Made by a program: the position numbers and the translations under genes
Shown here: positions 48,747 through 51,345 of the stretch, one piece after another
Layout of the letters: each line of letters begins with the position of its first letter
Numbering within the stretch: position 1 is the stretch's first letter
The notes under the pieces: model-generated
What the model saw: the letters and a program-made list of their open reading frames with translations, nothing else
Database searches by the model: none
What the model was told of the DNA's origin: nothing
From: a virus
DNA: 64,000 bases
Virus record (IMG/VR): IMGVR_UViG_3300045988_081484
Direction: 5' to 3' (one strand)

Positions 48747-49601
48747 ATGGGATATAGTATCAAAAAACATAGTCTCTATTCTTATGTTCAAATTGTAACA
48801 ATTCCCTTCACAGACATTGAAAAAATTGACTTTGCCTTATGCAATCAACCGACGGAAACTCCAGATGCTTATTATAAAAGACAGGCTACTAAACCAGATA
48901 TTATTACTAATGGAGGTTTCTTTGCCATGAATAATGGCAACACTTGCTTTAGTTATAAAGACGAAGGAACTGTTATTTAGTCTGATTTTCGTCATGGAGT
49001 TGCAATTAGCGGCAATAAAACACTTATATATACAACATTAAAAGATTATGAAACCGCTAGAGATTTTATCGCAGCTTATCCTGCATTAATTGTAGATAGC
49101 AAAAAAGTAGTTATAACAGATGGAAAAGAATTAGATTATAAAGCCCGCAGGACTTGTATTGGATGGAATAAAAATAATTATTATATTGTAACCGTAGATT
49201 CTCCAGGTCTTGTTTATGCTGCCCTATAGCAAATTTTTCTTGAATTGAAAGTAGAATATGCTATTAATTTAGATGGAGGCGGATCTACTAGATTACTAAT
49301 AGATGGGAAAAGAAAAACTTCTCAAATTTATGCAAGACCAGTTGATAATGTAATGTGTGTATATTTTAAGAAAGAACAAGAGGTAGTTCTTTACAGAGTT
49401 CAAGTAGGAGCATTTCTATCTAAAACCAATGCAGAGAATATGTTAAAGGAATTGGAAGAGAAAGGATTTAGCGGGTATGTCAAGAAAGTAGGAATTTTTT
49501 ATAAAGTTCAATTAGGTGCTTTCTCTGTGAAATTAAATGCAGAAAGACTAAAAGATAAATTAAAATCTGCTGGATATAGCTCTTTCATTACAAAAAAATA
49601 A
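48747..49601 (+). CDS. Phosphodiester glycosidase (NAGPA/DUF2233-like) with C-terminal SPOR peptidoglycan-binding domain (2 in-frame TAG)
   Basis: Track ORFs 48747 and 49245 share a frame, linked by TAG codons at 48978 and 49227. SPOR-like 'RVQVGAF...KVQLGAF' repeats. Confidence 0.6.
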
Positions 49602-49603
49602 AA

Positions 49604-51013
49604 ATGACTAATGCTCAAATTATTTGGAAATACTTTAAAGGCAAAGGTTTTAGTGATTGCGGAATTGCCGGTTTAATGGGTAATCTTTATGCCGAAAGTG
49701 GTCTTAATTCTATTAACTTATAGAACACCTATGAAAAAAAATTAAAAATGACCGACGCAGGATATACCTCCGCAGTTGATGATGGAAGGTATAAAAACTT
49801 TGTAAAAGATGGGGCGGGATATGGATTGGCTCAATGGACATTTTGGAGCAGAAAACAAAATTTGCTTTAGTTCTGTCAAAGTCGAGGTAAATCCATTGGA
49901 GATTTAAATACTCAATTAGATTTTTTATATTAGGAGTTAATTACAAGTTTTTCTAGTTTAGTTAAAATTTTGATTTCTGCCACTTCTGTCACAGAAGCCT
50001 CTACCGCAGTATTACTCTAGTTTGAAAGACCTTCAGACTAGAGTTTTTCTATGCAACAAAAGAGAGCTAATTATGGTCAATAGTATTATAATAAATTTGC
50101 TAACATTTCAAATGTAATTGAAGGAGGTAATAAAATGAAATATAGCGATAGCAATAAACCACTTCAATGTATGATGACAAATAGCACTTGCTATAAACAA
50201 ACACGCACCATGCAAGTTAAAGGAATCTTATGGCATAGTACTGGTGCAAATAATCCTAATTTAAAAAGATATGTATAGCCAAGCGATAATGATCCTAACT
50301 ACACCAGTTTAATAAATAAATTAGGAAAAAATACTAGCAAGAATGACTGGAATCATATATCTGTTCAAGCTGGATTAAACTGTTGGATTGGTAAATTGGC
50401 TGATGGAACAGTAACAACAGTATAGACAATGCCATGGAATTATCGTCCTTGGGGATGCGGTTCTGGATCTAAAGGTTCTTGTAATAATGGATGGATTCAG
50501 TTTGAAATTTGCGAAGATGGATTAAATGATGCAAATTATTTTAACAAAATTTATGAAGAGGCTTGTCAAATTACTGCTTATTTATGTAAAATGTATAACA
50601 TAAATCCATTGGGAACCACTACTTTAAATGGTATCACCGTTCCGACTATTTTATGTCATGCTGATAGTCACAAGCTAGGATTAGGATCTAATCATGCAGA
50701 TGTAAACCATTGGTTTCCAAAATTTGGGAAAAGCATGGAAACCGCAAGAACAGATGTTTATAATTTAATGTCAAATATCTAGGAGGATGATGAAGATATG
50801 ACTGACGAGAAATTCGCTGAACTTATGAATACTTGGCTTACTAATAAAGCTAATGAAAAAGAAACTTGGGGCACCGATAATCTTGAATGGGCTAAAGCGA
50901 ATGGGATTATGGCTGGAGACAGTGCTGGAAGAATGATGCCAAATAAATTCTGCACTAGATTAGAAACTGTAACTATGTTAAGAAGATTGGCTGAAAAGCT
51001 GGGTTTAAAATGA
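49604..51013 (+). CDS. Multidomain endolysin: lysozyme-like domain + amidase_2/PGRP domain + SLH cell-wall-binding domain, 9 in-frame TAG codons
   Basis: A single frame runs from ATG 49604 to TGA 51011 if TAG is sense. Domain signatures are 'GLMGNLYAESG...GYGLAQWT', 'CHADSHKLGLGSNHADVNHWFP' and the SLH-like 'NLEWAKANGIMAGDSAGRMMPNKFCTRLETVTMLRRL'. Internal RBS+ATG at 50135 and 50816. Confidence 0.6.
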
Positions 51014-51345
51014 AAAAATTAGAATTTTCCAAAAAACTTATAAATGATATTCGTATGTTATTATGGGTCGTGACTGTGTCAGGTATCCTTTTGGCATTTA
51101 TGTGTGTTTATATGGGATATTTAGGAACCCTTCCATGGATTAGTGCTCTTGTTGGTCTACCATGGAGCGCCCACGGAGTAGTTTGTTCTTTTTATTTAGC
51201 AATGGCTAAATCAGATCACAAAAAGGGCGGCATTACTTATGACCTAGCTTTAAAAGAAACTGAATTCAATTCTGCATATAACATCCCCGCAGAAGATTTT
51301 TCAGCCTCTAATGATATTCCCATTGATCTCGATGGTCCTATTTAA
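51010..51345 (+). CDS. Holin-like membrane protein
   Basis: Two or three TM helices; ATGA overlap with the endolysin; terminator at 51349..51388. Confidence 0.5.
   Translation: MKKLEFSKKLINDIRMLLWVVTVSGILLAFMCVYMGYLGTLPWISALVGLPWSAHGVVCSFYLAMAKSDHKKGGITYDLALKETEFNSAYNIPAEDFSASNDIPIDLDGPI

Follow-up and report, generated by a model that had tools for sequence, protein, structure and literature searches.

A 64,000-nucleotide stretch of viral DNA (IMG/VR virus record IMGVR_UViG_3300045988_081484; the whole stretch is hereafter called the window) carries at 48747..51345 what we read as a self-contained lysis operon of a large gut phage that decodes TAG as glutamine and infects Clostridia of the Oscillospiraceae type. 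Its central gene (49604..51013) encodes a full-length endolysin of 469 residues with nine in-frame TAG (Gln) codons and three domains: Phage_lysozyme2, Amidase_2 and a single SLH repeat. We consider it probable, if not strongly so, that this is a modular, recoded endolysin of ancestral fusion origin, in which two internal start sites give rise to three nested products, the SLH modules of these products assemble with one another and the TAG codons serve as ordinary glutamine codons. The same degree of confidence covers the operon, its decoding and its host taken together.

Once TAG counts as sense, a single open reading frame (ORF) without TAA or TGA encodes the endolysin, as an initial annotation of this DNA had proposed, although the product is 469 rather than 470 residues long. 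Pfam places the Phage_lysozyme2 catalytic domain (PF18013, E 4e-35) at residues 3-165 (49610..50098), Amidase_2 (PF01510, E 1.7e-11) at residues 202-353 (50207..50662), within a module that extends by homology from about residue 178 to 392, and the single SLH repeat (PF00395) at residues 422-454 (50867..50965), with a TR(L)E motif at residues 451-454. Both catalytic parts fall in endolysin families of PHROGs (20388 and 15001), and the glutamate E31 of the AESG motif in Phage_lysozyme2 is invariant in the endolysin family, as are H211, H352, H364 and D366 of Amidase_2. The SLH match is marginal in the full protein (19.8 bits, just below the Pfam cut-off of 20.8) and rises to 23.7 bits (E 4.9e-5) when the 71-residue C-terminal module is scanned alone. 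SLH is matched in 5 of 16 family members (best 4e-8), a family profile of the module matches the SLH domain of B. anthracis Sap (3PYW, 6BT4; E ~5e-5), and T451 and R452 of the TRAE motif, which reads TRLE in the window, are invariant in the family. Catalytic domains and a wall-binding domain, here SLH, are both present, as in other modular endolysins of Gram-positive hosts. The domain calls of the initial annotation (SLH, Amidase_2, and SPOR and NAGPA in the gene upstream) all hold against profile hidden Markov models.

Probable internal start sites at the two domain junctions

Internal starts are common in Gram-positive endolysins and have been classed as Type I or Type II (PMC9430671, PMC12203907), the first lying between catalytic domains, as in Ply2638A, and the second before the binding domain, as in Lys170, LysIME-EF1 and CTP1L (PMC12203907). 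The window endolysin carries a candidate of each class. At junction 1, between the two catalytic domains, the candidate Type I site (50121..50137) consists of AAGGAGGT, a spacer and the ATG at 50135 (Met178). The Shine–Dalgarno (SD) core GGAGG at 50123-50127 is followed after 7 nt by the in-frame start, and the pairing of a ribosome-binding site with an ATG at 50135 had been recognized correctly in the initial annotation. Initiation here would yield a 292-residue amidase–SLH protein (50135..51013) with three TAGs and the N-terminus MKYSDSNKPLQ. At junction 2, where the binding domain follows the last catalytic domain, the candidate Type II site (50780..50800) consists of an AGGAGGA that overlaps the TAG codon of residue 393 (TAG393), an 11-nt spacer and the in-frame ATG at 50798 (Met399). 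The earlier assignment had put this start at 50816, where there is no ATG; GGAGG at 50782-50786 precedes the ATG at 50798, and a further in-frame ATG at 50825 has no SD. The predicted product from Met399 is a free SLH module of 71 residues (50798..51013) with no TAG, the N-terminus MTDEKFAE and the N-terminal peptide MTDEKFAELMNTWLTNK. Peptides across the two domain junctions of the full-length chain would be ...NVIEGGNKMKYSDSNK and ...NLMSNIQEDDEDMTDEK.

Both sites are outliers in strength. Among the 260 internal in-frame ATGs of 47 window ORFs, Met178 ranks first by SD duplex energy (-13.4 kcal/mol) and Met399 third (-10.2 kcal/mol); only 4 of the 260 reach -10 kcal/mol or lower, and the median for true gene starts in the window is -6.9 kcal/mol. 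The other two strong internal ATGs lie at 34877 (ORF 34757..35155, -12.4 kcal/mol) and at 48927, inside the NAGPA domain of the gene upstream (-10.0 kcal/mol).

To place the sites in their family, we fetched more than 100 related loci, comprising 80 from IMG/VR and others from bacterial genomes found in a GTDB scan, and aligned 57 unique sequences (the window and 56 related loci). Ranking the in-frame start codons of each gene by their SD puts the two junction starts in first and second place in most lineages, with and without recoding. Met178 is invariant, and a GGAG(G) core stands 4-11 nt upstream of it in nearly all 57 sequences, being weak in loci L061 and L062. The linker peptide at junction 1 varies (EGGNK, KEEMAK, QKGGGS, TGGNK, EKGDG) and the SD motif falls in different codon phases; that the motif is kept while peptide and phase change points to selection on the nucleotides themselves. 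In bacterial genomes, many homologs exist as free-standing amidase genes that carry SLH, SH3 or peptidoglycan-binding tails; they begin exactly at the MKY of Met178, preceded by a stop and by an SD of their own, and Met178 is accordingly the retained start of a gene that was fused.

At junction 2, GAGGAGGA or AAGGAGGA stands 9-11 nt 5' of an ATG or GTG in every SLH-bearing relative. The motif also occurs in two-domain amidase–SLH genes, such as that of Dulem virus 33, and is absent from relatives whose C-terminal domain is not SLH. Codon choice within the motif is skewed as well: glutamate codons in the junction-2 SD are GAG rather than GAA by 75:5, compared with 341 GAG and 631 GAA elsewhere in the same genes, and where valine replaces Met399 its codon is GTG in three of three cases.

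Each site, then, appears as an outlier in strength, located in a linker and conserved across its cluster, the features by which such starts have been recognized in published surveys (PMC9430671). On this comparative evidence we take both SD–ATG pairs to be real, far beyond chance, and consider that they are most likely in actual use and give three nested products. The analogy to endolysins with internal starts, which the initial annotation had drawn in general terms, holds for both junctions.

Ancestry, known systems and proposed assembly of the products

All 80 IMG/VR loci match residues 1-469 or most of them, at 51-98% identity, and many are TAG-free and hold the three domains in one standard-code ORF (for example L024, L027, L041-43 and L052-76). 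Dozens of TAG-free full-length homologs at 51-63% identity occur in IMG/VR contigs and bacterial genomes; one of them (L086) lies in the genome record of Oscillospiraceae bacterium 50-58, and the GTDB scan returned shorter relatives in Flintibacter muris, Colidextribacter, Acutalibacter and Muriventricola. Because relatives without TAG keep all three domains in an uninterrupted ORF, the three-domain fusion is ancestral and independent of recoding. That relatives are found inside genomes of Oscillospiraceae, Acutalibacteraceae and some Lachnospiraceae supports a host among the Gram-positive Clostridia. In one such relative (L134, on the uncultured Oscillospiraceae metagenome-assembled contig CANROC010000007.1), a group I intron at 3926..4241 (Rfam RF00028, 66 bits, E 4e-16) splits the amidase domain right after its conserved WIQFEI motif.

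The closest parallel for junction 1 is Ply2638A of Staphylococcus phage phi2638A (M23 peptidase, Amidase_2, SH3b). It too places a catalytic domain before Amidase_2 and a binding domain, and an SD and start codon in its linker give a short form with amidase plus binding domain; an origin by gene fusion has been proposed (PMC12203907). It differs in having an M23 peptidase instead of Phage_lysozyme2, SH3b instead of SLH, one internal start and the standard code, and its products have been shown experimentally, whereas those of the window are predicted from sequence. In phi2638A, synonymous removal of the SD or start codons causes a defect in lysis timing (PMC12203907). A second parallel comes from the Faecalibacterium phage FP_Lagaffe, whose 527-residue endolysin (MG711461 2980..4563) shares the lysozyme-then-amidase order (Phage_lysozyme2, Amidase_2, SPOR), is 51% identical to the window protein over residues 3-211 and has one outlier internal SD+ATG between its catalytic domains (Met184, -12.5 kcal/mol). 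SPOR stands in place of SLH, there is no junction-2 site, the Amidase_2 region does not align with that of the window in tblastn, and the phage is cultured and uses the standard code. FP_Lagaffe thereby offers a tractable cultured system for a Type I internal start.

For junction 2, the models are Lys170 and LysIME-EF1 of Enterococcus phages and CTP1L and CD27L of Clostridium phages, in which a Type II start supplies the binding domain as a separate product, which then associates with the full-length chain (PMC12203907, PMC4777826, PMC7098653); their binding-domain folds are unrelated to SLH and each has a single catalytic domain. The closest published architecture on the SLH side is LysBT1, from a Brevibacillus thermoruber prophage, which joins Amidase_2 to one SLH repeat with a TRAE-type motif, as in the window, and differs in having no lysozyme domain and no reported internal start (PMC12285257). 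The SLH of LysBT1 mediates both wall binding and trimerization, and function of a single SLH repeat through oligomerization has been reported for LysBT1 and SlpA (PMC12285257). Each chain of the window endolysin likewise has one repeat rather than the three tandem repeats of a pseudo-trimeric spindle, and by analogy we infer that it could form a trimeric SLH spindle.

Together these parallels suggest how the gene might work. A lysozyme module would have been placed before an amidase–SLH endolysin whose own ribosome-binding site and start codon stayed in place, and ribosomes starting at Met1, Met178 and Met399 would yield the full-length enzyme, the amidase–SLH short form and the free SLH module. 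Since the functional SLH unit is a trimer of repeats, the free module probably assembles with the SLH repeats at the ends of the catalytic forms, completing mixed trimers much as free binding domains do in Type II systems. The operon would be translated late in infection, once the suppressor tRNA described below is active; the nine TAGs as a group may hold back the catalytic forms until then, and the free 71-residue SLH module would need no suppression. No SD precedes the endolysin ATG at 49604 (duplex +2.0 kcal/mol), and its position 2 nt past the TAA that ends the preceding gene suggests translational coupling. Full-length synthesis would probably depend on that coupling, whereas junction 1 has the strongest SD of the window, so the amidase–SLH form may be the main catalytic product.

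Several points weigh against this picture. The support for the internal starts is the conservation of SD+ATG pairs, which is strong but indirect. The junction-1 SD is weaker in some lineages (-6.2 kcal/mol in L061 and L062, about -8.6 kcal/mol in L063-L081), the GAG bias at junction 2, which holds in at least eight lineages, has a Fisher P value that is inflated by shared ancestry, Gly-Gly and Glu-Glu linkers partly yield GGAGG-like strings by themselves, and the conserved acidic peptide at junction 2 (EEDDEDM) could be under selection at the peptide level. A single-sequence structure model of the SLH module (predicted local distance difference test score, 62) has a helix-helix-hairpin-helix arrangement compatible with SLH and is too weak for a fold search; the case for SLH-mediated hetero-oligomers is carried over from LysBT1 and from binding domains of unrelated fold; and the last gene of the cassette is taken as a putative holin from its position, size and hydrophobicity only.

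Some of these points would fit the alternative that the internal SD+ATG motifs are non-functional, being either left over from the fusion or a side effect of Gly-Gly and acidic linker sequence, and that the full-length protein is the only product of the gene. Since Met178 once served as the start of free-standing amidase genes, a relic would be expected just after fusion, yet the motifs persist in at least ten lineages, down to about 50% protein identity, despite the changing linker and codon phase at junction 1. Gly-Gly written as GGA-GGN and Glu-Glu written as GAG-GAG do produce GGAGG-like strings, but the 75:5 choice of GAG is made in genes that otherwise prefer GAA, valine replacements always use GTG and the junction-2 motif is lost exactly where another domain replaces SLH. 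Of the portal genes surveyed by Pinto et al., 15% had putative internal starts, a figure that those authors take as a possible rate of false positives (PMC9430671); here, the two sites are the only strong SDs within the endolysin gene, and FP_Lagaffe, despite an Amidase_2 region that does not align with that of the window, also has a junction-1-type site. We therefore regard non-functional motifs as unlikely, if worth keeping in mind, and prefer internal starts that are in use.

TAG decoding and the domain borders

The endolysin TAG codons start at 49721, 49868, 49931, 50018, 50039, 50081, 50276, 50423 and 50780, corresponding to residues 40, 89, 110, 139, 146, 160, 225, 274 and 393. Of 25 TAG-free homologs, 24-25 have glutamine at columns 40, 225 and 274 and most have it at columns 146 and 139, and further TAGs of a relative at 85% identity (L084) fall on the invariant Gln77 and Gln299. 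ARAGORN identifies a suppressor tRNA with anticodon CTA at 27479..27554 (given the program's default label 'Pyl'), the acceptor stem of which (GCGGA/TCCGC) and G73 resemble those of the window tRNA-Gln(TTG). TAGs on glutamine columns, together with a tRNA-CTA that has a glutamine-like acceptor stem, make decoding of TAG as glutamine well supported. There are exceptions at single columns in other loci: L026 has a TAG at the column of window residue 81, which is tryptophan in 23 of 25 TAG-free homologs and where a sequencing error, a polymorphism or ambiguous decoding could be at work, and some TAGs of the more distant L082 (IMGVR_UViG_3300028805_000039) fall on columns that read E, F or A in other sequences.

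TAG makes up 9 of 23 glutamine-like codons (39%) in the endolysin and 2 of 10 in the NAGPA gene upstream, and none in the genes for PhoH, RNase H, GyrB, GyrA and the MVP-like protein. Recoded gut phages have been reported to favor the reassigned stop in their lysis genes, among them one for a lysozyme-type amidase (bioRxiv 10.1101/2021.08.26.457843), and a heavy load of TAG in a lysis gene amid TAG-free replication genes fits that published pattern. The window shares with crAss-like, Lak and other TAG-recoded gut phages a suppressor tRNA-CTA, TAG as glutamine in lysis or structural genes and TAG-free replication genes (bioRxiv 10.1101/2021.08.26.457843; PMC9523058; PMC10607447), and differs from crAss-like and Lak phages in lineage and in its Clostridia-type host, large tRNA array and transfer-messenger RNA (tmRNA). 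Within the endolysin, an apparent gradient, with six of nine TAGs in the first third as judged visually, has no counterpart in L084 and was set aside, and the SLH module, although free of TAG, has no glutamine codon of any kind, so the absence of TAG there is uninformative. Another gene of the window is recoded as heavily as the endolysin: the 303-residue ORF at 58248..59159 has eight in-frame TAGs (40% of its glutamine-like codons), and its product has an N-terminal hydrophobic segment, a long charged region rich in Glu, Lys and Gln and a C-terminal GIY-YIG nuclease domain.

The initial annotation had placed TAG codons at or near both junctions and proposed that, under a suppressor of finite efficiency, they act as leaky stops, with termination freeing the N-terminal domains, read-through fusing them and the position of the stops, possibly together with reinitiation, setting the ratio of free domains to fusions. 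At junction 2 the geometry is indeed that of two coupled cistrons: TAG393 (50780) lies in the amidase–SLH linker, overlaps the SD 15 nt before the ATG at 50798 and is kept in close relatives and in L084. The first junction does not match, with TAG160 lying inside the lysozyme envelope, 18 codons before Met178. Eight of the nine TAGs lie outside the two linkers, four of them (residues 40, 146, 225 and 274) on predominantly glutamine columns, and frequent termination would mostly leave truncated junk. At least one of nine TAGs would fall by chance in the 21 linker codons of 469 with P = 0.34, and the family-wide count of 4 in 34 unique TAG columns (P = 0.064) is not significant either, in linkers that comprise the most substitution-tolerant columns.

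Comparison between lineages points the same way. Where the TAGs fall varies from one recoded lineage to another, neither of the recoded groups L008 and L010 has a TAG at a junction, and TAG393, present in the window group and L084 (~85% identity), is GAG in L085 (78%) and all more distant relatives, a GAG-to-TAG change that kept the AGGAGG core. No single stop is conserved at a domain junction, the arrangement by which programmed read-through is recognized. Because relatives with no TAG at all (51-63% identity) keep both internal starts, the elements that would make the isoforms predate recoding and are independent of it. On this evidence, TAG codons neither mark nor create domain borders and are unlikely to set product ratios; most of them sit on conserved glutamine columns within domains, where frequent termination would mostly give useless truncations. 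The leaky-stop model as a whole strikes us as quite improbable.

Two local features touch on this model. L082, a distant recoded relative with 16 TAGs, reads TAG TAG CAA TAG immediately 5' of the GGGAGG SD at junction 1, which would suit leaky stops; a lineage-specific role in termination and reinitiation may exist there, although nothing requires it. A hairpin at 50014..50044 (13 bp and TTTTT, within the lysozyme domain), considered as an attenuator 5' of junction 1, was rejected on its absence from L007, L084 and L085; it holds TAG139 and TAG146 in its arms (CTCTAG...CTAGAG), occurs only in relatives of at least 98% identity and is probably incidental.

By construction, the nested products need nine, three and zero suppression events, a gradation that speaks for some link between TAGs and product ratios and could be taken further. 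The gene might read out the state of the code switch, with the harmless SLH module alone accumulating before and during the build-up of the suppressor tRNA, the amidase–SLH form coming next and the full-length form last; termination and reinitiation at TAG393 would aid early SLH synthesis, and the two TAGs of the upstream gene would add to the dependence of the full-length form. If so, the composition of a hetero-trimeric SLH complex, and hence its lytic power, would ramp with the suppressor level. We rate this elaboration as a long shot. Barely credible is the view that lysozyme, amidase and SLH are two or three separate genes with true stops at TAGs such as 50081 or 50780: a standard-code caller does return 50798..51013 as a 71-residue ORF with its own SD and starts another ORF at 50135, but each such 'gene' is itself broken by further TAGs on conserved residues, no TAA or TGA lies between 49604 and 51011, and TAG-free relatives carry all three domains in one uninterrupted ORF. 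One recoded gene with ordinary glutamine TAGs and two internal starts remains our preferred reading.

The lysis cassette, its surroundings and significance

Three co-oriented ORFs fill 48747..51345 and are tightly packed once TAG is read as sense; under the standard code, the ORF listing breaks the same region into many short frames. The cassette is bounded upstream by a terminator-like hairpin at 48697..48724 (12 pairs and a T run), 3' of a PhoH/PIN gene, and downstream by another at 51347..51385 (17 pairs and a T run). These hairpins, the cassette with its start sites and the suppressor tRNA gene are all on the plus strand. The packing, the bracketing hairpins and the endolysin domains bear out the earlier description of the region as a lysis cassette. 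The surrounding genes (PhoH/PIN, RNase H, GyrB and GyrA) are all TAG-free, and the GC content of the window is 36%. An Rfam scan of 48000-52000 gave nothing meaningful (its sole match, pntA, scored 29 bits against a threshold of 54), a scan for sigma-70-type promoters was uninformative (17 matches, with 15.6 expected), and at the nucleotide level the cassette matches none of 50,697 phage records, among which relatives appear only at the protein level.

The first gene (48747..49601, SD GAAAGGAGA at 48732-48740) encodes a 284-residue protein with in-frame TAGs at 48978 and 49227. It couples a NAGPA phosphodiester-glycosidase domain (E 1e-19) with an endolysin-type SPOR domain (E 1e-15; both Pfam) and is present only in the closest relatives and L084. 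When viral contigs were searched for remoter NAGPA relatives, only the five closest contigs came back, and tblastn of the protein against the 50,697 phage records matched the SPOR part alone, with no NAGPA homolog. One may speculate that the protein cuts phosphodiester-linked wall polymers at lysis. The third gene (51010..51345) encodes the holin-like membrane protein of 111 residues, and its start overlaps the endolysin stop as ATGA. The protein has a hydrophobic stretch at residues 16-38, a second, weaker one at about residues 41-66 and an acidic tail; it has no match in Pfam, PHROG or NCBIfam, and its gene contains neither TAG nor any other glutamine codon. The gene directly follows the endolysin gene in most relatives, including prophage-like loci in bacterial genomes.

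Elsewhere in the window, 31 tRNA genes and a tmRNA (16753..17068) are interspersed with short ORFs over 10181..28613. Genes in 22412..26026 carry two, five and two TAGs, and one of them has an Mtd_N match and is possibly tail-fiber-like. At 30789..33230, a TAG-free protein of 813 residues matches MVP_shoulder, the Vault repeat and SPFH/Band_7 and looks like a major vault protein; a DUF2828+DUF7788 protein is encoded immediately upstream (28857..30377). The sole matches to this region among the phage records searched are the huge uncultured phages LR756500, LR756501 and LR756503.

Overall, endolysin internal starts have so far been described one per gene, whereas the family of the window bears conserved signatures of both classes in one gene. 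Our literature search found no paper with a Type I and a Type II start together, which is absence of evidence only, and dual internal starts with a single-SLH binding module make up a combination that is so far undescribed. The LysBT1 study knew of no earlier SLH endolysin (PMC12285257); the family described here is, by contrast, large, and is abundant in phages and prophages of Oscillospiraceae from gut and rumen. For annotation, the practical consequence is that standard callers shred the recoded gene and list the 71-residue SLH ORF as a separate gene. The idea that domain stoichiometry is written into the positions of TAG codons, however attractive, is unsupported and can be set aside, and a clear example from a Firmicute phage is added to those in which lysis genes are the most heavily recoded. 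Finally, a single SLH repeat works only as an oligomer, which provides a concrete and testable reason why such an endolysin would make a free binding module.

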